64,000 bases of DNA, from the NCBI GenBank assembly GCA_964544275.1, contig CAZIZX010000002.1, forward strand, positions 2,056-66,055, written 5' to 3'. Within the stretch, counting starts at the first letter, position 1; each line of letters opens with the position of its first letter. Position numbers and translations under genes: made by a program. Below, one piece after another: positions 8,622-21,852 of the stretch. The notes beneath the pieces are model-generated. The model had not been told where the DNA came from. It made no database searches and saw nothing but the letters and a program-made list of their open reading frames with translations. This DNA comes from an uncultured Gammaproteobacteria bacterium (GTDB lineage Bacteria > Patescibacteriota > Microgenomatia > UBA12405).

Positions 8622-9530
8622 TCAGGGATGGACAGGATAGACTTTGCCATTTATTTCTTCGACAAGATTGTTGAGAGACATTAGTGAGACTTGGATGGAG
8701 AGATCTGAAACCGAGAGGTGAAGGCGAGGGGAGAGCTCGTCTATCGTGAGGGGTTCGGAAGAGACAAGGTCAATAATTTTTTGTTCGAGTGGAGAGAGTG
8801 AGGATGGGGATGAGGGTAGGGAAAGTTGCTTGATGCCGACAATATCCTGAGGAGAAGTTACCAGTTGAGCTTGATTGGTTTTGATGAGTTGGTTGGTACC
8901 GGAAGATAACGAAGAGGTGATAGGGCCAGGGATGCAAAAAAGAGGCTTGTTCTGTTTGAGAGCCAGGCGGGCGGTAATAAGCGAACCGGATTTGTGGTTG
9001 GCTTCGATGATGAGAACGCCTAAAGTGGAAAGGCCGGAAACGATACGATTGCGTTGAGGAAAAGACCAAAGAGTCGGTTTGAAATCAGGCTCGAATTCAG
9101 AAATAATCAGGCCGTTGTTGTCGATAATTTGGGAGAAAAGAGGGTTGTTTTCGGGAGGGTAGGGGTGGTTAAGGCCACTGCCCAGAACGGCGATAGTTTG
9201 GCCCCCGCAGTTTAGAGTTTCCTGATGGGCCAGAGTGTCAATACCGTACATAAATCCGGAAACGATGGTTATATTTTGTTGTATTAGCAGAGGAATGAAT
9301 TGTTTGATAACTTGGTGGCCGTAAGTAGTGGATCGACGGGAACCGACGATGGCAAGAGTATTTTGGAAGAGATTTGGATTGAAAGTCCCGGAATAGTAAA
9401 GTTTTTTAACTTTAGGCTTGATAGTAAGTAAGCTTGAAGGAAAATCGGGGTGGTCAGGGGTAAGGGTGTTAACAGGATAGGTTTTCATAGTGGTTAATAC
9501 GATTAACAGAATTGTCCTGATTGAGGACAA
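8622..9530 (-). CDS. dprA: DNA processing protein DprA (Smf)
   Basis: ..LAIVGSRRSTTYGHQVIKQF..IVSGFMYGIDTLAHQETL..AVLGSGLNHPYPPEN is the DprA Rossmann-like core. The start may instead be the internal Met (MKTYPV) at 9488. Confidence 0.85.
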   Translation of the reverse strand: MSSIRTILLIVLTTMKTYPVNTLTPDHPDFPSSLLTIKPKVKKLYYSGTFNPNLFQNTLAIVGSRRSTTYGHQVIKQFIPLLIQQNITIVSGFMYGIDTLAHQETLNCGGQTIAVLGSGLNHPYPPENNPLFSQIIDNNGLIISEFEPDFKPTLWSFPQRNRIVSGLSTLGVLIIEANHKSGSLITARLALKQNKPLFCIPGPITSSLSSGTNQLIKTNQAQLVTSPQDIVGIKQLSLPSSPSSLSPLEQKIIDLVSSEPLTIDELSPRLHLSVSDLSIQVSLMSLNNLVEEINGKVYPVHP

Positions 9531-9834
9531 TGCAGACAGCGTCGAGGCGGAAGCGGGAATAAGAAAGAGGGTGTGTCTGGATGAAACTTTGGGCAGTCTT
9601 TTGAATTTGTTTAATTTTGGAGGTAGAGATCATGTCTTCCGGGTTGCCAAAGTGGGAACCGATTTTGAGCTTGACTTCAACGAAGACGAGAGTATCTGAA
9701 TCTATCATTATCAGGTCAATTTCACCAAAACGGGTGTGGAAATTGTGATCGAGCGGTTGGAAACCTTTTTGGATTAAGAAATTTTGGGCAAGGGATTCGC
9801 CAAGTTTACCTTTGGAATAGTTTTGCTGTTTCAT
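9469..9834 (-). CDS. yraN: YraN-family (UPF0102) endonuclease
   Basis: 121 aa. ..AQNFLIQKGFQPLDHNFHTRFGEIDLIMIDSDTLVFVEVK.. is the UPF0102 pattern. Overlaps the comM stop (ATGA). Confidence 0.8.
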   Translation of the reverse strand: MKQQNYSKGKLGESLAQNFLIQKGFQPLDHNFHTRFGEIDLIMIDSDTLVFVEVKLKIGSHFGNPEDMISTSKIKQIQKTAQSFIQTHPLSYSRFRLDAVCIVLNQDNSVNRINHYENLSC

Positions 9835-11366
9835 TCTTGGGTTCTGATCCGATATTGTAAACTTTCGGCGATGTGGGTGTCGGTAATGGAATCTGATTGG
9901 GCCAGATCGGCAATAGTGCGGGAGACTTTAATAAGGCGAAAATAAGTGCGGGCGGAAAGAGCATATTTGTTGACGGCGGTTTTGAGGAGCAAGTTCCCTT
10001 GACGGGTGAGGTTGGCAAAAGCTTTGAGGTGAGAATTTTTCATGTCAGAATTGGTGTGGACGTTAGGGATATCTTTGAGGCGATGGGACTGGATTTGACG
10101 GGCGGTTAGTATCCGGGATTTGATATTTTCGGAACTTTCGGATTGAGGCTTGTTTGAGTTGACCATGAGTTTGTCAACGTCAACAGCAGGGACGTTGAGA
10201 TGAAGATCGATTCGGTCCATGATAGGACCGGAAAGTTTCTTTTGGTAGTTTAGGATTTGATGCTGGGTACACTTACATTCTTTTTTGGGATCATTTAAGT
10301 AGCCGCAGGGACAAGGATTAGCGGCGGCAACCAGCATGAATTGAGCAGGAAAGGTAACAGAACCGGAAGCGCGGGAGACGGTGATCTGGCCGTCTTCGAG
10401 AGGTTGACGGAGAGCTTCGAGACAGGAGCGGGGGAATTCGGGAAATTCATCCAAGAATAAAACGCCACGATGGGCCAAAGATACTTGGCCAGGCCGGGGA
10501 TTTCCGCCACCGCCGATGAGACCAATGGTGGAAGTAGTGTGGTGGGGAGATTGAAATGGACGGAGACGAATCAGAGAACCACCGGGAGGAATATTGCCGG
10601 TGATGGAGTAGATTTTGGTGACTTCGAGGCTTTCCTTTTGGGTAAGGTCGGGGAGGATGCCGGGGAGAGCGCGGGAGAGCATGGTTTTGCCACTGCCCGG
10701 ACTGCCCATCATAAAAATATTGTGGCCGCCAGCAGCGGCAATTTCCAGGGCGCGCTTGGCTTGTTGTTGGCCCAAAATTTCAGAAAAATTAAACTCAGGA
10801 TGAATATCGGACAGAAGTTGATCTGTTTTGATGGGTTTGAGAGGAGTCAGGATGCGGTCACCAGTGAGGTGTCGAATGAGTGAGTGGAGATTGTCAACCG
10901 GATAGACGTTGAGGCCGTCGATAACAGCGGCTTCGTTGGCGCAGAGGCGAGGGACAAAGAGGTTTTTGACACCCTGTTCTTTGGCCAAGACAGCCAGAAG
11001 AAAAACTCCAGTAGTGTGACGGAGGGAGCCGTCGAGGGATAATTCACCGTAGAAATAGGAAGGAATATTTGGCAGGGGAATTTGGGCGAAAGCAGAGACA
11101 ATGCCGACGGCAATAGGTAGGTCGTAACAAGAGCCGGTTTTGGGAAGGTCGGAAGGTGCCAGATTAACAGTAATCTTGGCGGTAGGAAATTCCAGGTTCG
11201 AGTTGATAATAGCGGTTTTGACCCGTTGGACAGCTTCTTCAACTGATTTATTACTGAGGCCGACAATGGAAAAACCAGGGAAGCCTTTGGAAGCAACATC
11301 GACTTCAACATCGATGTTGGTAGCCTGAAGGCCGTAACTGGTGGCAGAGGCAACTTTGACGAGCAC
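9831..11366 (-). CDS. comM: YifB/ComM-family Mg-chelatase-like AAA+ ATPase (competence-associated)
   Basis: 511 aa. N-terminal Lon-like domain, Walker A GSPGSGKTMLSRALPGILP, and a C-terminal region. GTG start. Confidence 0.9.
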   Translation of the reverse strand: MLVKVASATSYGLQATNIDVEVDVASKGFPGFSIVGLSNKSVEEAVQRVKTAIINSNLEFPTAKITVNLAPSDLPKTGSCYDLPIAVGIVSAFAQIPLPNIPSYFYGELSLDGSLRHTTGVFLLAVLAKEQGVKNLFVPRLCANEAAVIDGLNVYPVDNLHSLIRHLTGDRILTPLKPIKTDQLLSDIHPEFNFSEILGQQQAKRALEIAAAGGHNIFMMGSPGSGKTMLSRALPGILPDLTQKESLEVTKIYSITGNIPPGGSLIRLRPFQSPHHTTSTIGLIGGGGNPRPGQVSLAHRGVLFLDEFPEFPRSCLEALRQPLEDGQITVSRASGSVTFPAQFMLVAAANPCPCGYLNDPKKECKCTQHQILNYQKKLSGPIMDRIDLHLNVPAVDVDKLMVNSNKPQSESSENIKSRILTARQIQSHRLKDIPNVHTNSDMKNSHLKAFANLTRQGNLLLKTAVNKYALSARTYFRLIKVSRTIADLAQSDSITDTHIAESLQYRIRTQE

Positions 11367-11410: not shown

Positions 11411-11827
11411 CTAATAGAAAACGACGGAGACGGTTTGGGGAACTTGGAGGCCATTGGATTGGGCAGAGACAGTGAAGCGGCCGGTAATGGAGGAAGAAAG
11501 ATCAAAAACAGCTTTGCCTGAATCGTCGGTGATAGGTTGAATAGGGTGGGCGTTAACGGTTGGAGGTAAATTGAGAGAGACATTTTGGTGGGGAATACCG
11601 AGCCCGCGGGAGTCGAGGAGAAAGACGGTGATGCGAACTAACTCTTGGCTATCGGCCTTGGCTTGAAGGGGTGAGGCAAAAAGATAGGAATTGGAGATGG
11701 AGCCGGCGGAGGTGGGTTGGCTAACTTGGGCCTGACCAAAAAAGACGGTGGTTTGCATTAAAAGATAAAGAGAGGCAAGCAGGGAGAGAACTAGAAATGC
11801 TATTAAGGCTATGATTCCGGGTTTCAT
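11411..11827 (-). CDS. Small secreted Big_1-like Ig-domain protein (paralog of 4351..4767)
   Basis: 138 aa. Signal/anchor, then ELVRITVFLLDSRGLGIPHQNVSLNLPP..TDDSGKAVFDLSSSITGRFTVSAQSNGL. Collinear similarity to the 4351 protein. Confidence 0.6.
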   Translation of the reverse strand: MKPGIIALIAFLVLSLLASLYLLMQTTVFFGQAQVSQPTSAGSISNSYLFASPLQAKADSQELVRITVFLLDSRGLGIPHQNVSLNLPPTVNAHPIQPITDDSGKAVFDLSSSITGRFTVSAQSNGLQVPQTVSVVFY

Positions 11828-11830
11828 TAA

Positions 11831-12682
11831 TTAATTGTAACGGATATTGGCAAGAGATACATGACGGATGGTCGGAAGATAACGAGGTGTGGGTTGAGGA
11901 AGAGTTTTTATTATCAAGTAGACAAAAAGAGTAAGAGTGAGAATAAAACAGGGGAGAAAAATAATCAGGAACTTGTGCGCCAGCCAGAAGAGATAGAGAA
12001 TAGAAGGAAGGCTGTAGTTTAGGGTATTTGATTTGGGGGTGTTGTTGTCTTGATAGAGAGCGGTGGCAAAGAGCCGGTAGTTGCTGGAATAGACGGTTGG
12101 CAGAGAGAAGCTGTAATTGCCAGATTCATCTGTTTTGATTGTAAATTGGGGTAAAGAGTAAGCATAGGTTTCTTTGGGGAAAGTCAAGGGATTTTGCTTG
12201 TCTTGGTAGAGGTAAATGTTGACAAAACTGTCAGGAATGGATTGACCTGAAGCCAGGCTGGTGGAATTGGCTTTGATATTATCGGAGTCGATGGTAATGG
12301 TGGGTGGTAGGAGGATGGGTCCGATATCGGTATGGATGTTTTCAGGAGGTGGTGGAGGGATACAGACGGGGTGGGAGCGGCGGGAGTGATTATCAGTGGA
12401 GGTGAGGCAAAGATCGGAAGGATTTTCGGGCAGGATAGACTTGTCAAATTCAAAGTAACCCGCTTGGTTGGTGTAAGTGACATCAAAAACCCGAGGAGAG
12501 CTAAGCTCAACCCGAGAATTGGGAGTGGTGAAGCCGTGAATGGTGACTTGATTCTTGCCAATGAAGGCTGATATCCGAACTGAAGGTGTTACTTCAGCTT
12601 GGGTGGAAGGAGGAGAAACTAAGATGAAAATAGTAGATATGGCTAAAAGTATGGCAGACCAGAATCTTTTAGGTACGATCAC
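11831..12682 (-). CDS. Secreted Ig-like surface protein with C-terminal TM anchor
   Basis: 283 aa. N-terminal signal peptide, beta-rich Ser/Thr/Asn-rich body, C-terminal hydrophobic helix (LIIFLPCFILTLTLFVYLII). Confidence 0.5.
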   Translation of the reverse strand: MIVPKRFWSAILLAISTIFILVSPPSTQAEVTPSVRISAFIGKNQVTIHGFTTPNSRVELSSPRVFDVTYTNQAGYFEFDKSILPENPSDLCLTSTDNHSRRSHPVCIPPPPPENIHTDIGPILLPPTITIDSDNIKANSTSLASGQSIPDSFVNIYLYQDKQNPLTFPKETYAYSLPQFTIKTDESGNYSFSLPTVYSSNYRLFATALYQDNNTPKSNTLNYSLPSILYLFWLAHKFLIIFLPCFILTLTLFVYLIIKTLPQPTPRYLPTIRHVSLANIRYN

Positions 12683-13652
12683 GGTATTTATTTTTTAGAT
12701 TTTCCAGATCAGGTTGATGAGGAGGCAGAGGTTTGTTTTTGTTGGTCCGATCCTTGTTCTTCAGGATAATGACGAGAAGAGCTATGAGAGCAATGAGGGC
12801 CATGAGGAAGGTGATGAGTCTCCAGGGAATGACCCAGAAGAAGACGGTGGCGGTTAATAGTCCGCCAGTAGTACCATAGGTGGCATTAACTTGAGCCTGA
12901 TAGCGACCAAGGAGCCATTTTTTGTCGAGTTGGTTAATAAATTCTCTTTGGGTATAGGGGAAGATATTGGTTTCGGTCAAGGGAAGTTGAGCGGTAGTAC
13001 CACCAAGCATATTTTTGATGGTGATTTGTCCGTTGGGGGTGATATGAACATCGGAAAGGTTTTCGATAATAGTTTGGATGTCTATGGGTCCGAATTCAGA
13101 AAAGCCAGGTACCGTTAGGTCAACAATGCGGGCATCCTGTTTGATATCTCCGGGAACGGTAATATAGATGAGGCTGCCAACATTGGTTTCGATAGCGGCG
13201 CCGGTGGTATCGAGAAAGACATCAGTTTGAGGATTGTGGAGGACCATAGCATAATGTCCACCAGGAAGGGCGTCAATTGGAGCAATAACGGTTAAGATGA
13301 GAGACTTGGTCTCACCCGGTTTAAGTTTGAGTTGAGTGGGAGAGACCTGAATCCAGGAACTAGCGGCCCAACGATTATCTTCTTCGGTAACGCCGTCAAT
13401 CTGAACAGGGGTACCGATAGTATCGGTGACGACGAAATCCTTGACATTGGTGGTGATAACTTTTTCGGTTTGAGATTCGTTCCGGACCTTGATCTCTTTG
13501 CTGACATGTTGGCCGGGCTCAACAGTGATTTCCAGTCGTGGAGGTATAGCCGATAGACCCAGAGCCGACTGAGCTTTGACATGGGGTGTTAGAAGGAAAT
13601 AAGTAGCTGATAGGAGTAGGAGGATGAGGCTGGTTTTGAATATATTTTTCAT
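12669..13652 (-). CDS. DUF916/DUF3324-like (CscA-like) cell-surface protein with C-terminal TM anchor
   Basis: Likely start at the internal MKNIFK (complement of 13650-13652), which precedes a signal peptide. The longer ORF start is 13748. The C-terminal block ..LGRYQAQVNATYGTTGGLLTATVFFWVIPW + TM matches the DUF3324 pattern (G-x-Y ... F-x-I + TM). Paralog of 18014..18880. Confidence 0.5.
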   Translation of the reverse strand: MKNIFKTSLILLLLSATYFLLTPHVKAQSALGLSAIPPRLEITVEPGQHVSKEIKVRNESQTEKVITTNVKDFVVTDTIGTPVQIDGVTEEDNRWAASSWIQVSPTQLKLKPGETKSLILTVIAPIDALPGGHYAMVLHNPQTDVFLDTTGAAIETNVGSLIYITVPGDIKQDARIVDLTVPGFSEFGPIDIQTIIENLSDVHITPNGQITIKNMLGGTTAQLPLTETNIFPYTQREFINQLDKKWLLGRYQAQVNATYGTTGGLLTATVFFWVIPWRLITFLMALIALIALLVIILKNKDRTNKNKPLPPHQPDLENLKNKYRDRT

Positions 13653-13663
13653 TGTTTTTTGGA

Positions 13664-15145
13664 TTAAAATGTGGCGGTAGCAGTATAAACAACTTTTGTT
13701 TCGTAGTTGCCGGCAGCTTGAAGGGTGTTGGCAACGATCCGGTAGCACATATAGATACTTTCGACAGCAGTAGGAGTGCTGGCATTGCTCATAATATTTT
13801 GGGCATTGACGAAACCGATGCCGAAGGGTTTGGCGGTGAAAGTAGTGCCGCTGGTGTTGTATTGAAAGGGAACGGTGGTGGCGTTGATATTCTGAATTGA
13901 ATAGCCAAAGCCAGATTCGGCCACATCCGAATGCCAGCGGGCGGCGGTAGTGACAGAACAGGTATAAGTAGGATTGTCGCAGTTAGTATCAGGGATGGTG
14001 GTACCGGTAGATATATTTGATAGATAACCGGATTCGTAGACGGTAACGGCGTAACCATTAGTGGCGTTAGTAGTAGCGCTAAGTCTTTGGGCTAGATTAT
14101 TACCGGTACTGCCGATGGAGAGTGAACCGAAAGCGACGGTAGTGGCGGTGGTGTTGTTGGCGCTGGCACCGAGAACATTACCGCAACGGGTCTGGCCGGA
14201 GCCGACGCCGGAATTGTCGATAGTAAAGGTAATAGTAGGATCAACCGTGGCGGTGACCCGAACCGATTCGACAACGGCGATACGACCTGAAGCGGTGTCG
14301 GCATCGATGACGGCACCAGTGGAATCCAAGTGGCGAACGAAGAAATTATAAACATCGGCAACGCCTTCGGAGGAGTAGGGGCGGCTGACTGAAGAGCTGG
14401 GATTGATCAGTTGACTACCGGTAGATAAATCGCGACCGATGCCGATACTGGTACCGATGTCGACCGGATTGTTAGCACCGGCGGCGAGAGTACAAGTAAT
14501 AGAGTGGTAAAGATTGCTACCAATAGTAACATTGGTGACTCCGATTGAGGCAGTGCCAAAAGGACAGGTGATATCGGCTGGTTTGAGACGGGTACCGATG
14601 CCAGTGTTGGTGGAGCCAACGTCGGAGCCGAGATCGAAGCCCTGCTGGTCGGGCATACCGTCAGCTGCCAGTTCCCCGACTCGGGAAGTAGCTTTTATGA
14701 GTAGTTGCCAGGCGCCGCCAGTGACAGAGCTTTTGGGAGTGAAATAGGTGGTGTGGATGGCTGATCGGGTAGCAACGATGATGCTAGTGTTGAAAGAATT
14801 ATTGTGAGCCAAGGTACCGCCGATTTGAAAGACGGCGGTGTTGCCGATACCGCTGACTGTGTAGTGGTCAAGTCCAGTGACTCCAGTTTTGGCGATACCG
14901 ATGACATCGCCGGCAAAGAGATTGGAGGTGGTATTGGACGGATTGCCGGAGGTCTGGATGGTTAGAAACGAACTGCCGGCAGTATTGCCGGTTCCAAGAC
15001 GGGCAAAGTAAGACATTTGAGAGTTGGACAGGACATTGCGGACACTGGTGGGTGGTACTGATCGAATATTGCTTTTGGGTGCCAGTAAAGAAATGGCTCC
15101 AACAGCAGTTAGTACGAGTAAGGTCCTAACCGTTAATTTTTTCAT
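13664..15145 (-). CDS. Secreted surface protein with WxL-like C-terminal domain (ends ..AAGNYETKVVYTATATF)
   Basis: 493 aa. Signal peptide MKKLTVRTLLVLTAVGAISLLAP. The C-terminal ~170 aa (TIPDTNCDNPTYTCS..W..GFGYS..AGNYETKVVY) are homologous to the C-terminus of 18883..19645. Confidence 0.5.
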   Translation of the reverse strand: MKKLTVRTLLVLTAVGAISLLAPKSNIRSVPPTSVRNVLSNSQMSYFARLGTGNTAGSSFLTIQTSGNPSNTTSNLFAGDVIGIAKTGVTGLDHYTVSGIGNTAVFQIGGTLAHNNSFNTSIIVATRSAIHTTYFTPKSSVTGGAWQLLIKATSRVGELAADGMPDQQGFDLGSDVGSTNTGIGTRLKPADITCPFGTASIGVTNVTIGSNLYHSITCTLAAGANNPVDIGTSIGIGRDLSTGSQLINPSSSVSRPYSSEGVADVYNFFVRHLDSTGAVIDADTASGRIAVVESVRVTATVDPTITFTIDNSGVGSGQTRCGNVLGASANNTTATTVAFGSLSIGSTGNNLAQRLSATTNATNGYAVTVYESGYLSNISTGTTIPDTNCDNPTYTCSVTTAARWHSDVAESGFGYSIQNINATTVPFQYNTSGTTFTAKPFGIGFVNAQNIMSNASTPTAVESIYMCYRIVANTLQAAGNYETKVVYTATATF

Positions 15146-15347
15146 TAAGGATTGCGCGTTTGTTAATGTTAATAATTAAAGATAGTGGAGAGAGAGAGTG
15201 GTTGTCAAGAGCTTGATTATTACTTTATGTGTGTGGTTTTGGAGAAAGGTGGTAATTGGATGTTCTGGGAGGTTGAAAATTAGGCGGTTTGGGGATAAAG
15301 TATGCAATACTAGATACGTATTAAAAGTTTTTTAAAAAGGACCAATC

Positions 15348-17987
15348 ATGCAAAAATATGTCTATTTTTTCGGTAATGGCAAGGCAGAAGGCGATAAGGA
15401 GATGAAGTTTTTGTTGGGTGGGAAAGGAGCGAATTTGGCGGAAATGACTAATTTGGGTGTACCCGTACCTCCAGGAATTACGATTTCGACTGAAGTTTGC
15501 CGATATTATTATGAGCATGATAAGTCTTATCCGGCAGAATTACAGAAAGAAATTGATGAGGGGTTGAAAAAAATAGAGGGAGTGACGGGGAAGAAGTTTG
15601 GTGACGAAAAAAATCCATTGCTGGTTTCGGTCAGGTCCGGAGCAGCTGCTTCGATGCCGGGGATGATGGATACGATATTAAATTTGGGTTTGACTGATAA
15701 GACAATTAAGGGGGTAATTGAGAAGTCGGGAAATCCGAGATTTGCCTGGGATTCTTATCGAAGATTTGTTCAGATGTTTGGTAACGTGGTGGATGGGATT
15801 GAACATGAGAAGTTTGAACATGTGATTGAGAGCATTAAAAACAAAAAGGGAATTAAAGAGGATTTGGAAATGAAGGCGGAGGATTGGGAGGAAGTGGTGG
15901 CCGGTTACCGGAAGCTTTATGTAATTGAAAAAGGTGAAGATTTTCCCCAGGACCCAAGAGTGCAACTGGAAAGATCAATTAACGCTGTTTTTGGGTCGTG
16001 GAATAATCCTCGAGCAATTACGTATAGAATATTGAATAAAATTGATGAGAAAAAGATATTCGGGACGGCGGTAAATGTTCAGTCAATGGTGTTTGGGAAT
16101 ATGGGTGAAGATTCGGGAACGGGAGTAGCTTTTACCCGAAATCCGTCAACGGGAGAAAACAAACCGTATGGTGAGTACTTAATGAATGCCCAAGGTGAGG
16201 ATGTAGTGGCCGGGATCCGAACACCTAAACATTTAGAATTACTAAGAGAAGATAATGAGGCTGCTTATGATCAGTTGATGGCTTTGTTTGACCGACTGGA
16301 AAAGCACTATAGAGATATGCAGGATGTGGAGTTTACTATAGAGAATGGGACATTATATGTGCTGCAGACCAGAAACGGCAAGAGAACTGCAGCAGCGGCA
16401 GTCAAAGTGGCGGTAGATTTGGTGGCTGAGGGAATGATTGATGAAAAAGTGGCATTAACGCGGGTTGAGGCTGAAGCTTTGGATCAGTTACTTCACCCGA
16501 CTTTGGACCCAAAATCCAAAAAAGATTTTAAGGTGATAGCTACCGGATTACCAGCTTCGCCGGGAGCGGCTTATGGTGCGGCGGTATTTACAGCCGAAGA
16601 CGCGGTAGAGAAAGCCGAGGCCGGTAAGAAAGTGATTTTGGTTCGGGCTGAGACTTCACCGGAGGATTTGGCCGGGATGCATGCGGCCCAGGGAATATTA
16701 ACAGCCAGGGGTGGTATGACTTCGCATGCGGCGGTAGTAGCCAGGGGCATGGGTAAGTGCTGCGTGTCCGGAGCTGAGTCGGTGGTGGTGTCAGAAAAGG
16801 CCAAAAACTTTAGAGTGGGTGAACTGACTGTGGCCGAGGGTGACATGATCACTTTGGACGGGTCAACCGGGGAAGTGTTTTTGGGACAGGTTTTGACCCA
16901 GACGCCGAGTTTGAGTGGAGATTTTGGAAAATTGATGTCCTGGGCAGATAAATACCGAAAGATGGGTGTTCGGACTAATGCTGATACGCCCAAGGATGCC
17001 AAAACGGCTCGGGAATTTGGAGCGGAAGGGATCGGTCTTTGCCGGACTGAGCATATGTTTTTTGAAGGAGACAGAATTTTTGCAGTGAGGCAGATGATTG
17101 TGTCGGAAACTTTGGAACAGAGAGAAGCGGCTTTGGCCAAGATCTATCCAATGCAGAAAAATGATTTCAAGCAGTTATTTGAAATTATGAAGGGTTTGCC
17201 GGTGAAAATCAGGCTGCTGGACCCGCCTTTGCATGAATTTTTGCCCAAAGAGGAAGCTGATATTGAGGCTATTGCCAAAGAAATGGGAATTACGGTGGAA
17301 AGACTAAAGGATAAGATTGAGTACTTGGCCGAATTTAATCCAATGATGGGTCATCGGGGAGTAAGGCTGGGGGTGACTTATCCCGAAATTTACCAGATGC
17401 AGGTACGGGCAATTATTGATGCGGCTTGTGAACTGAAAAAGGAAACAGGAGAGGAAATAGTGCCGGAGATTATGATCCCTCTAATTGGAGAGGCGGCGGA
17501 AATGCGTTGGATTAAAGCCAAATTATTACCGGTAATTGAGGAAACCATCAAAAAGGCCGGGGTGACATTGAAATATGAAGTGGGGACGATGATTGAAATT
17601 CCAAGAGCGGCCCTGTTGGCTGACGAGATAGCCGAAGAAGCGGACTTTTTCTCTTTTGGGACCAATGATTTGACCCAGATGACTTACGGTTTTTCCCGAG
17701 ATGATGCGGGTAAGTTTTTGAAAGAGTATTTGAAAGAGAAAATAATGGCTGAGGATCCTTTCCGAAGTGTGGATCAGGCCGGGGTGGGTAAGCTGATGGA
17801 AATGTCAGTGAGCTTGGGGCGGAAGGTAAGAAAGGATATGCATATCGGGATTTGTGGTGAGCAGGGAGGAGACCCTCAGACGGTGAAATTTTGTCACCGG
17901 ATTGGGTTGACTTATGTGTCGTGTTCACCCTTCCGGGTACCGATTGCTCGACTGGCGGCGGCCCAGGCAGCAGTGGAAGAATCGTGA
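15348..17987 (+). CDS. ppdK: Pyruvate, phosphate dikinase
   Basis: 879 aa. N-terminal ATP-grasp, central phospho-His domain (..GGMTSHAAVVARGMGKCCV..), C-terminal PEP-utilising TIM barrel. AAGGA 6 nt upstream. Confidence 0.95.
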   Translation: MQKYVYFFGNGKAEGDKEMKFLLGGKGANLAEMTNLGVPVPPGITISTEVCRYYYEHDKSYPAELQKEIDEGLKKIEGVTGKKFGDEKNPLLVSVRSGAAASMPGMMDTILNLGLTDKTIKGVIEKSGNPRFAWDSYRRFVQMFGNVVDGIEHEKFEHVIESIKNKKGIKEDLEMKAEDWEEVVAGYRKLYVIEKGEDFPQDPRVQLERSINAVFGSWNNPRAITYRILNKIDEKKIFGTAVNVQSMVFGNMGEDSGTGVAFTRNPSTGENKPYGEYLMNAQGEDVVAGIRTPKHLELLREDNEAAYDQLMALFDRLEKHYRDMQDVEFTIENGTLYVLQTRNGKRTAAAAVKVAVDLVAEGMIDEKVALTRVEAEALDQLLHPTLDPKSKKDFKVIATGLPASPGAAYGAAVFTAEDAVEKAEAGKKVILVRAETSPEDLAGMHAAQGILTARGGMTSHAAVVARGMGKCCVSGAESVVVSEKAKNFRVGELTVAEGDMITLDGSTGEVFLGQVLTQTPSLSGDFGKLMSWADKYRKMGVRTNADTPKDAKTAREFGAEGIGLCRTEHMFFEGDRIFAVRQMIVSETLEQREAALAKIYPMQKNDFKQLFEIMKGLPVKIRLLDPPLHEFLPKEEADIEAIAKEMGITVERLKDKIEYLAEFNPMMGHRGVRLGVTYPEIYQMQVRAIIDAACELKKETGEEIVPEIMIPLIGEAAEMRWIKAKLLPVIEETIKKAGVTLKYEVGTMIEIPRAALLADEIAEEADFFSFGTNDLTQMTYGFSRDDAGKFLKEYLKEKIMAEDPFRSVDQAGVGKLMEMSVSLGRKVRKDMHIGICGEQGGDPQTVKFCHRIGLTYVSCSPFRVPIARLAAAQAAVEES

Positions 17988-18013
17988 GGCTTGAAATTAG
18001 AGAAAGTGGGGGG

Positions 18014-18880
18014 TTAAGAGGTTCGGTGTCGAGGTAGTTTGTGGTGGCGATAAAAGGTTAGAGCAAGCAAGGAAAGTGGCAGCAGAAGAATTAGTAGAGA
18101 AAAAGGGAAGACGTAGAAGGTGGTAGTGACGGGTTTGGCGGAGTCGGTAGCGGAGAGAGAGAGGCTGGCAGTGTAAGCTCCGGGCCAGAAGGGTGGTTTG
18201 AGGGTGCAGGTGTGAGCGGGAGTGCAAAGGATAGAGCGGGAGTGGTTGGCCAAGACGTTTTGGGGAGATAGCTGCAATTGGACCATTTCCCGGTTATCTT
18301 TGTAAACTGTGATTTTACCTTCAGTTTTGAAGAAATTACCGGTCTGGTTTTTGATGAGGGCGGAGAGATTGACAGGAGTAAGGAAGCAGTCTTTGATTTT
18401 GGGCAGGGCAATAAAGTCGAATATTTGAGCAGAAAGAGGTAGTTTTTCGGTATCGGAGACAGAGAAGAGAAGGTGAGAGCCGATTTTGGCGTGAGTGCTG
18501 GATCTGGCTGAGTCAGGATTGATTTGGTTAGTTTGGGCTTGATTGACAAAAAGGGTGTAGTAATAATCTTTTTTGAGAGTATTTGAATCGGGCTTGATCT
18601 TGAGGACCAGTTGTCTTTTTTCGTCGGGTTTTAGGGCGAAAGTATCTCCCAATTTCAGGTCGGCGTTGTTGAGGGAAAATTGGATGTTTTCACTTTCGGG
18701 GACATGATCGTAGGAAAGCGAGCCGTCCGATCCGGAAGGTTGCCAGGCTTCGACGGAGGTGTTTAAGTAAAGGGTGTTGCCGGAGTTGTTGGTTAAGTCA
18801 TATGCCTGAAGGACAGTGGCACCGGGTTTGATGATAAATTCGGATTGGGCTGGATTGATGGTGAGACTGTAATCGGCCAT
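18014..18880 (-). CDS. DUF916/DUF3324-like (CscA-like) surface protein with C-terminal TM anchor (paralog of 12669..13652)
   Basis: 288 aa. ..LKPPFWPGAYTASLSLSATDSAKPVTTTFYVFP + TM FSLLILLLPLSLLALTF has the same G-x-Y...F-x-V + TM architecture. The N-terminal region is similar to the 12669 gene. Confidence 0.5.
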   Translation of the reverse strand: MADYSLTINPAQSEFIIKPGATVLQAYDLTNNSGNTLYLNTSVEAWQPSGSDGSLSYDHVPESENIQFSLNNADLKLGDTFALKPDEKRQLVLKIKPDSNTLKKDYYYTLFVNQAQTNQINPDSARSSTHAKIGSHLLFSVSDTEKLPLSAQIFDFIALPKIKDCFLTPVNLSALIKNQTGNFFKTEGKITVYKDNREMVQLQLSPQNVLANHSRSILCTPAHTCTLKPPFWPGAYTASLSLSATDSAKPVTTTFYVFPFSLLILLLPLSLLALTFYRHHKLPRHRTS

Positions 18881-18882
18881 GG

Positions 18883-19645
18883 TTAATATTTGGGAACGGC
18901 AATAAAAGTAATGGAATTGGAATAATTACCGGCTGATTGGAGAGGAGAAATGTTGGCTTTGTAAGTGATACGGGCAGAGTGCTGTTCAACAGGTGAATCT
19001 TCGGACATGATTATTTGGCTGGTTTCGGGTGGAGTGGCGGAGGAGTTGGCAAATTGGCGAAAATAGCTGGAGTCGGGAAAGTGTTGGGAAGTGCCAATAC
19101 CGATGGGAGAAAGAAGGTGGTTGATACCAGAGGCATTGAAGCCGAAGCCATAAGTAGCGCCGTTGGTCCAGACGCCGGAGACTGATTCGGAGCAGGTATG
19201 GGTATCGCAAGTAGTGTCGGGGATGGTAACTCCGGAAGCGAGGGAGAGAGGGTGGTTTTGGAAGGTTAGGATTTGGTAGCCTTGGCCAGAAGGAGTAGTG
19301 ATGGTAATAATGTTGGAGTCGGTGGAGCCGATACCGGGAGTAAGAGTGCCGAGGTTGACTAAGAGGTTATCAATTTCAAAAGAAAAATCACTGCGGAAGG
19401 AGTCGTAAATGTATTGGAAGCCGGATTTGAGAGTGTAGCCATTATTGTCAAATTGGCCGGGGGCATTTTGACCAATAGTATCGGTGAGGTTGTAGTTGGA
19501 AGAAGACTTGCTGCCGGAGGTAATGTTAAAGTTGCCCCAATCTATTTGGTAGGAAGGGGAAGTAAAAGTCTGACTGAAAACGAGTTGGGTAAAAAGGAGG
19601 AAGAGTGGAGTGGCGGCGATAAAAAAAATTAATTTAAGTTTCATC
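18883..19645 (-). CDS. Secreted surface protein with WxL-like C-terminal domain (ends ..SAGNYSNSITFIAVPKY)
   Basis: Start at MKLKLIFFIAATP (complement of 19643-19645), a signal peptide. The ORF-track start is 19842. The C-terminal domain is homologous to 13664..15145 (TIPDTTCDTHTCS..W..GFGFN..AGNY). Confidence 0.5.
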
Positions 19646-20281
19646 AGTTTCCCGGTCGATTTGACGGGTGAGATTTTGGGAAGAATCGAGTAATGATTGA
19701 GAGATTTTTTTGATTTTGACAAGTTCATTTTTTTGATTGGGGGTGAGTTTGGGATTGGATTGAAGGAGAGAGACAGAATCAAGGATGTCAAGCAGGTGGT
19801 TTTTGAAATCAAGAGAAAGGAAAAAGAAGATGTCGGTTTCATTCTTGGCGAGACTGTTGGTCATTTTGAGATTATTCAGGTATTGACGGCCGACGTACCA
19901 AGCCAGGGGTGAAATGAAAACGAGTGATAGAAGAGGGAGGAGGGAAGAAGTGGAGTTGAGAGATTGGGATAGGAGTATTATGAGAAAAAGAGAGTAAGCT
20001 AGGGTGGTGCTAGGCGGATGGTGAAAGGCCAGGACAAATAAGAGGAAGTAAATTAAGAAAAAGAAAGGTGAGCTGAGACCCGAGGTGCCAAAGACAATGA
20101 GGTTGATTAAAAGGGAGACGAGGAATAAATTAAGAGTTTGGCGGCGAAGAGAAACGGTTAACAGGACAATTGAGATAAGGGCAATAATTTGGGGTAGATA
20201 ATGAGAAAGCGGGGTGAGAGAAAGGAGAAACCCAAAAAGGGAGGTGAGCGACAATAATGAAATAACTGTTAGTTGTGACAT
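19634..20281 (-). CDS. Polytopic membrane protein, function unknown
   Basis: 215 aa. About 5-6 predicted TM helices, then a polar C-terminal tail. Overlaps the downstream gene by 12 nt. Confidence 0.45.
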   Translation of the reverse strand: MSQLTVISLLSLTSLFGFLLSLTPLSHYLPQIIALISIVLLTVSLRRQTLNLFLVSLLINLIVFGTSGLSSPFFFLIYFLLFVLAFHHPPSTTLAYSLFLIILLSQSLNSTSSLLPLLSLVFISPLAWYVGRQYLNNLKMTNSLAKNETDIFFFLSLDFKNHLLDILDSVSLLQSNPKLTPNQKNELVKIKKISQSLLDSSQNLTRQIDRETDET

Positions 20282-20345: not shown

Positions 20346-20927
20346 ATGGTGTTGAATAAATTACATAAGTTTAGCTGGCTGGATTTGGTTTTGTTGGCTG
20401 GTTTGGGGTTGATCGTGGTTGGGTTGGGGATGAGTATACGAAACAGTAGCAAAACGGCTGAGGTGGAAATAATTAAGAGAGGGAAAGCGGAAGAAGCAGA
20501 AGTTGATAGTGATATTATGGTTGACATAGCAGGAGAGGTGATAAAACCTGGAGTTTACAAATTGAGGCGAGGGATGAGAATAAATGATGGGTTGGCGGCG
20601 GCGGGCGGGTTATCGGCTGGGGCAGATAGGGAATGGGTAGAAAAAAGTTTAAACAGGGCGGAGTTGGTATATGATGGACTGAAAATATATATTCCAAAAC
20701 AAGGGGAAGTGATGGCCAGTGTGGCTGAAGCTGGCGGCAAAATCAGTATTAACCGATCCGGGCTGGAAGAGCTAAATAAATTGACGGGGATCGGGCCAGC
20801 TTTGGCCCAGAGAATAATTGACTATCGGGAGAAAATGGGTGGATTTAAAAATGTAGAAGAGATAAAGGCGGTAAGTGGAATTGGAGAAAAGATGTATGAA
20901 AAAATCAAAGACGAGATTAGTTTGTGA
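20346..20927 (+). CDS. comEA: Competence protein ComEA (DNA receptor, helix-hairpin-helix)
   Basis: 193 aa. TM anchor, SLBB-like middle, C-terminal tandem HhH (..LNKLTGIGPALAQRIIDYREKMGGFKNVEEIKAVSGIGEKMYEKI). Confidence 0.85.
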   Translation: MVLNKLHKFSWLDLVLLAGLGLIVVGLGMSIRNSSKTAEVEIIKRGKAEEAEVDSDIMVDIAGEVIKPGVYKLRRGMRINDGLAAAGGLSAGADREWVEKSLNRAELVYDGLKIYIPKQGEVMASVAEAGGKISINRSGLEELNKLTGIGPALAQRIIDYREKMGGFKNVEEIKAVSGIGEKMYEKIKDEISL

Positions 20928-21852
20928 GGAGTGGGGGATAAACTTTGGTTTGGTGGTAGCGATATATTTGATGTATAGGTTTATAGATAAGCAGGGTTTG
21001 ATTGATGTGGTTTGGCGAGCTTTGCCGGACAGGGAAGCCGGTTTGTTGTCGGGAATGCTTTTGGGGGTGAAGGATTTTGAGGGGCAGTTTTATAATGATT
21101 TAAAGGAGGTGGGGTTGGTTCATCTGGTGGTGGCCAGTGGAGCTAATGTGGCTTTGATAACCAGGATGGTGACTGAAAAGCTGGCAGGTTGGCTGGGTAG
21201 GAAAAGGGCTGTCGTGTTGGGCTTGGCAGCGGTTTGGGGATATGCCCGAATGGTGGGGTGGGAGGCGCCGATTATTAGAGCAGCGATCTTGATTTCGATT
21301 TTTTATTGGGGCCAATTGTTGGGAAGGAAATACAATGTGTTGAGGGGTTTGGGATTGGCGATAATAGTTATGATGGTGGCGAATTTCGACTATGTGACTT
21401 CAGTGAGTTTTTGGTTGAGCGTGGTGGCTTTTGGGGCAATTGCGATAAGAAATAATGAGGGACAAGGAAAGATGTGGCTGGTAGACGATTTAAAAACTAC
21501 AGGTTGGGTAAGTTTGTGGGTTAGTCCAATATTGGCCAAAGTATTTGGGGAGTTTAGTTTGGTGGGACCAATGATTGGCGCATTTTGTTTGTTTCTGGTG
21601 GAATATATTAGTGTGGTGGGAGGAGTGGGGGTGTTAGTTGGGTTAGTTTGGCCGTTTGGAGGAAGGTTGATATTGATGTTTTTGTATCCATTTTTAAAGT
21701 ATTTAGTTATGGTTTCTGAGGGCGTTGGTAGTTGGTCGTGGATAACTGTAGATTTGAATTTTAATTGGTATCTTTTGGCGGGATGGTATGTGGTACTTTT
21801 GTATGTATTACTGAGGAGAGTTAATGAAAACAAGAATCCTGCTTTTATTTAG
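20875..21852 (+). CDS. comEC: ComEC/Rec2 competence (membrane channel) domain protein, the N-terminal half of a split comEC
   Basis: ..LVHLVVASGANVALITRMV..WGYARMVGWEAPIIRAAILISIFYWGQLLGRKYNVLRGLGLAIIVMM.. is the Competence domain (PF03772) pattern. The ORF-track start overlaps comEA by 53 nt, so the real start may be downstream. Confidence 0.75.
   Translation: MELEKRCMKKSKTRLVCEEWGINFGLVVAIYLMYRFIDKQGLIDVVWRALPDREAGLLSGMLLGVKDFEGQFYNDLKEVGLVHLVVASGANVALITRMVTEKLAGWLGRKRAVVLGLAAVWGYARMVGWEAPIIRAAILISIFYWGQLLGRKYNVLRGLGLAIIVMMVANFDYVTSVSFWLSVVAFGAIAIRNNEGQGKMWLVDDLKTTGWVSLWVSPILAKVFGEFSLVGPMIGAFCLFLVEYISVVGGVGVLVGLVWPFGGRLILMFLYPFLKYLVMVSEGVGSWSWITVDLNFNWYLLAGWYVVLLYVLLRRVNENKNPAFI

Follow-up and report, generated by a model that had tools for sequence, protein, structure and literature searches.

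A conserved seven-gene operon in a Microgenomatia genome as a probable divergent version of the Pam pilus system

In a 64,000-nt stretch of metagenomic DNA (contig CAZIZX010000002.1, hereafter the window), seven minus-strand open reading frames (ORFs), designated g7 to g1 from the first to the last gene, span positions 11411-20281. The operon formed by them is likely to be a divergent Microgenomatia version of the Pam pilus system of the Candidate Phyla Radiation (CPR), known here from its genes and predicted folds, with g6 and g4 as pilin-like proteins, g5 and g3 as chaperone-like proteins, g2 as candidate terminator and membrane anchor, and g7 and g1 as accessory genes. The source genome is a Microgenomatia genome close to Candidatus Shapirobacteria, and two public metagenome contigs encode identical proteins with the same gene calls. 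An earlier description, made from the letters alone and referred to here as the sequence-only reading, had listed six of the ORFs as two WxL/Csc-like cassettes. All six exist, the end of g6 being 19644 where one base more (19645) had been noted, and g7 is a conserved seventh gene beyond them. For comparison, a scan of one genome per species yielded 187 relatives of g4, from which 78 loci were kept and labelled with L-numbers, and the window proteins were searched against all ORFs of these 78 related loci.

The Pam system was described in a 2026 preprint (10.64898/2026.03.03.709456), from which the NCBIfam Pam models (NF058579, NF058581) derive. As far as the available text of the preprint goes, the filaments were studied in the saccharibacterium Candidatus Mycosynbacter amalyticus, where cryo-electron microscopy identified PamA and PamB; these pilins have two domains and a linker that is donated to the next subunit and is among their most conserved parts, and both carry paired cysteines. 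In the pam operon described there, PamT comprises the C-terminal domain only and is the proposed tip, PamC and PamD are PapD/FimC-like chaperones whose transmembrane helix is C-terminal, and PamR, which has two fibronectin type III-like domains plus an additional strand at the N-terminus and a helix at the C-terminus, is the proposed terminator and anchor. All components carry a signal peptide, ATP synthase genes are reported near pamA loci, and homologues are reported mainly from Saccharimonadia and Microgenomatia (10.64898/2026.03.03.709456). With these Microgenomatia homologues the preprint has overtaken the suggestion of the sequence-only reading that the locus encodes an attachment apparatus undescribed outside Firmicutes.

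Proteins of the operon

By hydropathy, N-terminal signal-like segments are present in g1, g2, g3, g4 and g6 and absent from g5, and C-terminal hydrophobic helices are present in g2, g3 and g5. A C-terminal domain common to two signal-peptide proteins, noticed already from the letters, was confirmed: the domains of g4 and g6 share 32% identity over 167 aa (BLASTP E 2e-14), and comparison of the two family profiles gave an hhalign probability of 99.6% (E 1.3e-23). This domain matches the Pam pilin models. g6 was aligned with CPR_pilus_PamT over residues 8-253 (model positions 8-241 of 241; E 6e-11, 42.2 bits) and with the whole 148-position model CPR_Pam_pilin_C (E 6.4e-8, 32.8 bits), which was also covered in full by residues 333-493 of g4 (E 0.011, 15.9 bits). 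Both models were matched by 43 of 43 g6 homologues, with best E-values of 1e-15 (PamT) and 2e-11 (Pam_pilin_C) and a full-length PamT alignment in every case, and CPR_Pam_pilin_C was matched by 24 of 42 g4 homologues (best E 5e-7). Judged from sequence comparison, g4 and g6 are distant relatives of the Pam pilins and no equivalogs, and automatic annotation leaves them as "hypothetical protein". The same name is given to all of the more than 422 homologues of g4; those recovered for the g4 family all come from CPR bacteria.

The AlphaFold2 model of g4 is all-beta, with a mean predicted local distance difference test (pLDDT) value of 88.5. Behind the signal peptide, an N-terminal beta-sandwich (approximately residues 33-292) is connected by a linker (293-303) to the C-terminal Pam-type domain (304-493); strands lie within residues 33-292 and 305-491 of the model, and residues 293-304 are without regular secondary structure in the monomer. 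The linker, E-S/A-V-R-V-T-A-T-V-D-P, shows little or no variation among 42 homologues whose remaining sequence is about 50-60% identical, and its residues alternate as in an edge strand. Within the family, cysteines C194, C218, C321, C389 and C467 do not vary, and C396 is conserved to at least 90%, so that three disulfides are possible. Comparison of the g4 model with the PDB by Foldseek returned weak matches, some of them to subunits of chaperone-usher systems, namely CfaB (probability 1.0, TM-score 0.52), CsuE, Saf and CfaE; PDB sequence searches with g4 and g6 gave chance-level matches only. g6 is composed of a signal peptide, a conserved N-terminal region of about 70 aa and the Pam-type C-terminal domain, before which no copy of ESVRVTATVDP is found, as expected for a tip subunit.

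The proteins encoded downstream of the two pilin genes are paralogues with a C-terminal membrane helix, as the sequence-only reading had it. g3 and g5 share 21% identity over 260 aa (BLASTP E 5e-7), and their family hidden Markov models (HMMs) match each other at 7e-16 (g3-family HMM on g5) and 2e-23. In g3, the signal peptide precedes two beta-sandwich domains, at residues 33-166 and 174-274, which are followed by a transmembrane helix at 277-304. The best match of its AlphaFold2 model (pLDDT 80) among solved structures was the WxLIP of Enterococcus faecium locus A bound to a long WxL protein (9i25_C; Foldseek, E 2.7e-11), with 243 alignment columns on the 251-residue chain, i.e., over both domains. 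The next matches in the PDB were CfaA (5e-11), the WxLIP 9i1y (1.4e-10), CsuC (1.6e-9), FimC (6.6e-9) and Caf1M (8.9e-9); chaperone-type matches extended to an E-value of 7e-8, and DraB was also matched. g3 has a PapD-like two-domain fold but is membrane-anchored, unlike the chaperones of chaperone-usher systems.

The proposal that g3 and g5 combine a DUF916-like N-region with a DUF3324-like C-region found some support in its first half. Pfam WxLIP_PGBD (DUF916, PF06030) was weakly matched by 41 of 42 members of the g3 family (best E 8.8e-6; g3 itself 12.6 bits at a cut-off of 27.3) and by 11 of 44 members of the g5 family (best E 5e-5), in line with the WxLIP-type fold of the g3 model. One homologue seems to bear a DUF916-type name in UniRef, legible as far as "DUF9". 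DUF3324 (PF11797) was absent from the 25 commonest families among the matches listed for the two families, and the conserved DUF916 motif NQIDKxxxYFDLK is absent. The NCBIfam models for Pam chaperones or PamR were not matched by g2, g3, g5 or the g3 family, and PDB sequence searches with the g3 and g2 family profiles gave matches at chance level only. g5, which was assigned two beta domains as a paralogue of g3, has a hydrophobic segment (250-278) followed by a tail rich in R, H and K; the charged tail behind the membrane helix predicts an outside location of the N-terminal domain.

g2 is predicted to start with a signal peptide and an N-terminal strand, to continue with a pair of Ig-like/transthyretin-like domains connected via a proline-rich segment, and to end in a C-terminal helix (hydrophobic segment 227-263); its family weakly matched Big_6 (12 of 44 members) and CarboxypepD_reg (25 of 44). 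As evident from alignment column frequencies, the strand S-V-R-I-S-A-F-I-G at the mature N-terminus resembles the portion S-V-R-V-T-A-T-V of the g4 linker; the consensus of the strand in the g2 family is S-V-T/S-V/I-S-A-S-I-G, and the homologue at L075 reads VTVTATID. This architecture fits a PamR-like terminator, which would plug the last subunit and anchor the fibre. g1 matched Pfam Big_1 (bacterial Ig-like group 1; E 1.2e-11, 44.9 bits, cut-off 34.9). The two extra genes that had been ascribed to the first cassette, for an Ig-like protein with a C-terminal helix and for a Big_1 protein, are g2 and g1. g7 is a polytopic membrane protein with about 4-5 hydrophobic segments and a helical C-terminal tail, to which no Pfam family was matched. 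Its conserved motif F-x-T-G-G-l-n-S-P-x-f-F-L-x-Y-F-L-L-F may recall the membrane domains of some sensor kinases, a likeness that is given as a lead only.

Gene order and genome context

The 78 loci belong mostly to Candidatus Shapirobacteria, with a few from Woesebacteria, Beckwithbacteria and unclassified Patescibacteria. In 28 of them, fewer than 600 nt separate g5 from g4, without any intervening gene, and many of these (e.g., L010, L015, L020, L025, L047, L055 and L063) show comEA on the opposite strand followed by g7, g6, g5, g4, g3, g2 and g1 on one strand. The arrangement of the window, with an opposite-strand ppdK gene between g5 and g4, recurs in 12 related loci; a few others have 4-8 kb between the two genes, with no ppdK match there. 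The identity of ppdK is reflected by matches of its product, as encoded on a public contig, to Pfam PPDK_N, PEP-utilizers and PEP-utilizers_C. A g7 homologue is located directly 5' of g6 in 48 related loci, g2 follows g3 in 54, and g1 follows g2 in most, a second Big_1 gene often being present on the opposite strand after g1. Tandem duplication of g4 was found in 12 loci (L027, L036, L039, L044, L046, L054, L056, L057, L062, L064, L068 and L070) and recalls the PamA/PamB pair of the Pam system.

Because the seven genes are contiguous in many relatives, they are regarded as one operon and not as two independent cassettes; the simplest reading is a single operon g7-g6-g5-g4-g3-g2-g1 that is split by ppdK in part of the lineage. 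The synteny survey of related genomes to which the sequence-only reading had pointed revealed a conserved gene order among the 78 loci, and with it the "two paralogous cassettes" are better read as the halves of this operon. A family HMM search found no further copies of the system genes elsewhere in the window. The coordinates of all features are given in Table 1. The promoter-like site 5' of g4 could drive g4-g1, which are now cut off from g7-g5.

Table 1. Genes and sequence features of the operon, in window coordinates
Feature	Position	Strand	Description
g7	19634-20281	minus	215 aa; first operon gene; 3' end overlaps the start of g6 by 11 nt
g6	18883-19644	minus	253 aa, counted from MKLKLIFF; PamT-like short pilin, candidate tip subunit
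g5	18014-18880	minus	288 aa; chaperone-like paralogue of g3
ppdK (pyruvate phosphate dikinase)	15348-17987	plus	between g5 and g4; no part of the system
Promoter-like site 5' of g4	15179-15208	minus	TTGACA, 18 nt, TATCTT; 10/12 matches in a consensus scan; pattern match only
g4	13664-15145	minus	493 aa; PamA-like predicted major pilin
Linker of g4, candidate donor strand	14237-14269	minus	residues 293-303, E-S/A-V-R-V-T-A-T-V-D-P
g3	12669-13652	minus	327 aa, counted from MKNIF; membrane-anchored, PamC/PamD-like, WxLIP-like
g2	11831-12682	minus	283 aa; candidate pilus terminator and membrane anchor, PamR-like architecture
Mature N-terminal strand of g2	12557-12583	minus	S-V-R-I-S-A-F-I-G
g1	11411-11827	minus	138 aa; last operon gene; small Big_1 protein, membrane-anchored or secreted

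The operon is flanked by DNA-uptake genes (window positions 8622-11366 and 20346-21852). comEA and comEC are situated divergently upstream, and genes for a ComM-like Mg-chelatase-family ATPase, a YraN/UPF0102 protein and DprA (dprA) are situated downstream; the junction between comEA and g7 is kept in about 45 related loci.

The GC skew of the window is extreme and strand-specific. On the plus strand, (G-C)/(G+C) is between 0.16 and 0.56 in every 2-kb piece of positions 1-64000, and the skew at third codon positions is 0.54-0.89 in the plus-strand sense for genes of either strand. Related Shapirobacteria loci (L006-L083), with the operon set on the plus strand, show a skew of -0.2 to -0.45. 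Since the same bias is seen in these related loci, the skew is lineage-wide, with the operon always on the C-rich strand.

Many records of metagenome-assembled genomes carrying this CPR operon (L006, L010, L012, L019 and others) bear the title "uncultured Gammaproteobacteria bacterium", and a single one that of "Candidatus Methanoperedens sp."; such titles look like placeholder or wrong taxonomic labels.

Proposed assembly and comparison with Pam

Donor-strand exchange fits the operon because the g4 linker is nearly invariant and g2 has a similar N-terminal strand. In the assembly proposed on this basis, the pilins g6 and g4 would be exported by Sec, and their C-terminal Ig-like domain, predicted to be one strand short, would be kept soluble by membrane-anchored chaperones. 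This role would fall to g5, encoded beside the tip gene, and to g3, encoded beside the major pilin gene, with a two-domain fold that is PapD/FimC-like and WxLIP-like. g6, PamT-like and without a linker strand, would cap the distal end, and g4 would polymerise by donor-strand exchange, the segment ESVRVTATVDP of one subunit filling the groove of the next C-terminal domain. Growth would be stopped by g2, whose strand SVRISAFIG may enter the last subunit while the C-terminal helix would hold the fibre in the membrane. g7 and g1 may contribute accessory functions. Assembly would proceed without usher and without sortase, and the fibre would probably serve contact with host cells. The motif LPx[TSA]G is absent from g1-g7, neither the seven operon genes nor the examined flanking genes include a sortase, and no usher-like size or family match was found among them.

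The likeness to Pam extends over the occurrence in CPR bacteria, the full-length match of g6 to the PamT model, the organisation of g4 (an N-terminal beta-sandwich, a conserved linker, a Pam-type C-terminal domain and paired cysteines), the pair of chaperone-like proteins with C-terminal membrane helices (g3 and g5), the probably two-domain protein g2 with its putative N-terminal strand and its C-terminal helix, and the lack of both usher and sortase. The locus differs from Pam in its low sequence similarity, in having one major pilin gene, duplicated in some relatives, where Pam has PamA, PamB and PamE, in the signal-less g5, in the extra conserved genes g7 and g1, and in the split of the operon by ppdK.

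Several observations weigh against the assignment to Pam. To our knowledge, a filament has been observed in no Microgenomatia organism. Every NCBIfam score falls far short of its curated cut-off, with 42 versus 240 bits for CPR_pilus_PamT, and 33 (g6) and 16 (g4) versus 55 bits for CPR_Pam_pilin_C (NF058581), so that membership in the Pam family rests on consistent sub-threshold homology. g1 and g7 match no pam component among those described in the preprint, and the neighbours of the operon are competence genes, ATP synthase genes not being seen among the flanking genes examined. Finally, g5 lacks a signal peptide here as well as in about 50 of its homologues, a state conserved across Shapirobacteria. 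A signal-less g5 is hard to reconcile with an extracytoplasmic chaperone, and it is at variance with the preprint, in which every component has such a peptide.

The signal-less start of g5, M-x-F-N-L-S-L-S-P-A-Q, corresponds to the position of the mature N-terminus in two divergent homologues that keep their signal peptide (L075:8952-9914 and L078:9011-9937). Together with the N-out topology signal, the missing signal peptide hints at an unusual export route. Fusion of g6 with g5 by read-through or frameshift, by which g5 would be exported, was considered and found unlikely, as ORF coordinates show no constant distance from the g6 stop to the g5 start among loci.

WxL clusters, rival explanations and significance

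WxL clusters consist of small WxL proteins, large WxL proteins with the WxL domain at the C-terminus, and a WxLIP of the organisation DUF916-DUF3324-transmembrane helix, and a beta-hairpin strand of DUF916 is predicted by AlphaFold to insert into WxL (PMC10599100). In the WxL literature, WxL proteins are described as monomers bound to peptidoglycan (PMC10599100, PMC9772566, PMC1534035). Like the WxL/Csc clusters of Lactobacillales and Listeria, the operon combines a short protein, a long protein sharing its C-terminal domain and an anchored protein with two Ig domains. Among solved structures, the fold of g3 is nearest to WxLIP (PDB 9i25 and 9i1y), DUF916 matches are weak but family-wide, a C-terminal transmembrane helix is present, and the predicted insertion of a DUF916 strand into WxL amounts to a chaperone-like strand complementation. 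Unlike in these clusters, the shared domain shows neither detectable WxL similarity nor a dual W-x-L motif, NQIDKxxxYFDLK is missing, DUF3324 is not among the matches listed, an LPxTG partner gene is lacking, and WxL proteins are described as monomers and not as fibres.

To compare the shared domain with WxL-like sequences outside Firmicutes, a comparison family was seeded by a small protein encoded beside an Arthrobacter DUF916 gene (Pfam WxL E 5.5e-4) and deepened among 1.8 billion representatives, yielding 2339 members in short (about 175 aa) and long forms, the long forms carrying a C-terminal domain. In a tblastn search of g3 against plasmids, proteins annotated as DUF916 domain-containing were found in Arthrobacter and in Clavibacter, and a protein of Deinococcus was matched at E 3e-8. 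These scored 42 (Arthrobacter), 28 (Clavibacter) and 69 bits (Deinococcus) with the g3-family HMM, and the Clavibacter protein passes the Pfam DUF916 cut-off. The g3-like, DUF916-type genes outside CPR and Firmicutes adjoin genes for small secreted proteins on a Deinococcus plasmid (L003, NZ_CP140100.1), in Arthrobacter (L004, NZ_CP099467.1) and in Clavibacter (L005, NZ_CP040796.1), the Arthrobacter neighbour (L004:5224-5733) being weakly WxL-like. No Pam-type pilins were detected by HMM search beside the DUF916-like genes of these three loci. PDB sequence searches with the actinobacterial DUF916 and WxL-like proteins remained at chance level and did not retrieve the deposited WxLIP and WxL chains.

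The explanation closest to the sequence-only reading is a WxL/Csc-type complex, in which g3 and g5 as WxLIPs would hold g6 and g4 non-covalently at the surface as monomers, with no fibre formed. It is favoured by the best solved-structure match of g3, an E. faecium WxLIP in complex with long WxL, by the DUF916 matches in both chaperone-like families, by the same logic of short, long and anchored two-domain proteins (PMC10599100), and by the Arthrobacter plasmid on which a g3-like DUF916 gene adjoins that of a weak WxL protein (E 5.5e-4). The client proteins speak against it. PF13731 (WxL) was not matched by g4 or g6 at E-values up to 10, nor by 42 g4 homologues at E-values up to 1, and the W-x-L motif is absent from the C-terminal domains of g4 and g6. 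Comparison of the g4/g6 C-terminal families with 18 and then 151 actinobacterial WxL-like sequences gave hhalign probabilities below 1% in local, global and permissive modes; the permissive alignment pairs V-x-F-G-S-L with V-x-G-G-x-L-S-I in the first strand and the last motif A-G-x-Y, but is not significant. The best 50 PDB matches of the g4 model include chaperone-usher pilins and lack the long-WxL chain of 9i25, and the domain matches Pam pilin models instead. In addition, the invariant g4 linker and its look-alike in g2 would be expected if strands are exchanged, but not of an anchor that stays monomeric, and the PGBD motif is missing. We conclude that the WxL interpretation is partly supported: g3 and g5 do resemble WxLIP/CscA, the structural comparison upholding this for g3, and the shared C-terminal domain, which had been likened to WxL, is no detectable WxL domain. 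A purely WxL-type complex is accordingly held to be unlikely.

Folds that are common to many surface proteins could also mean that g1-g7 are unrelated Ig-like adhesins or S-layer-type proteins that merely share beta-sandwiches and have no dedicated assembly pathway. Many weak Ig-fold cross-matches (FixG_C, fn3_5, NPCBM_assoc, integrins and MSCRAMMs) and the sub-threshold level of all Pam and WxLIP sequence scores agree with this, but the conserved seven-gene order among the 78 loci, the chaperone-like gene after each pilin gene, the invariant linker motif, the full-length PamT alignment in every g6 homologue and the two-domain match of g3 to WxLIP and chaperone-usher chaperones over about 245 columns do not, and we consider it improbable, even more so than a WxL-type complex. 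The least probable explanation is that a diderm bacterium was the source of a classical chaperone-usher pilus. As in the Pap/Fim, class 5 CFA/I, archaic Csu and Caf1 pili, a PapD-like chaperone, a pilin-like incomplete Ig domain and probable donor-strand exchange are present, as reflected by the matches of the g3 model to CfaA, CsuC, FimC, Caf1M and DraB and of the g4 model to CfaB, CsuE, Saf and CfaE. Unlike in those systems, there is no outer membrane, no usher or large outer-membrane barrel was found among the seven operon genes and the flanking genes examined, the chaperones are membrane-anchored and not soluble, the candidate donor strand is an internal linker between the two pilin domains in place of an N-terminal extension, and the recovered g4-family homologues are confined to CPR.

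A Pam-type pilus therefore remains the assignment that we favour with some confidence, and the locus is to be seen as a divergent addition to an already described system. The most interesting lead concerns a common ancestry of Pam and WxL. It is conceivable, at a likelihood that we place somewhat short of even, that Pam pili, the WxL/WxLIP (Csc) clusters of Firmicutes and the actinobacterial and Deinococcus clusters of DUF916 and small proteins form one ancient usher-less family of surface assembly, in which a membrane-anchored PapD-like chaperone may complete the incomplete Ig-like domain of its client. In the literature searched, no paper linking WxL with Pam pili or with chaperone-usher systems was found. 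If the common ancestry is true, WxL proteins would be chaperone clients and possibly strand-exchange polymers, and Pam would be no invention of the CPR.

CPR bacteria account for much of bacterial diversity, and a life in attachment to other cells is assumed for most of them. A complete and strongly conserved operon, probably of the Pam type, is present in Shapirobacteria and their relatives, and every protein encoded by it is currently annotated as hypothetical. With the parts list proposed here, consisting of a tip, a major pilin, two chaperones, an anchor, two accessory genes and a likely donor strand, the system becomes testable. The structural resemblance of its chaperones to the WxLIPs of lactobacilli, enterococci and Listeria could bring two bodies of literature together, and it suggests for WxL surface proteins a mechanism of chaperoning and strand complementation that would be relevant to gut colonisation and virulence.

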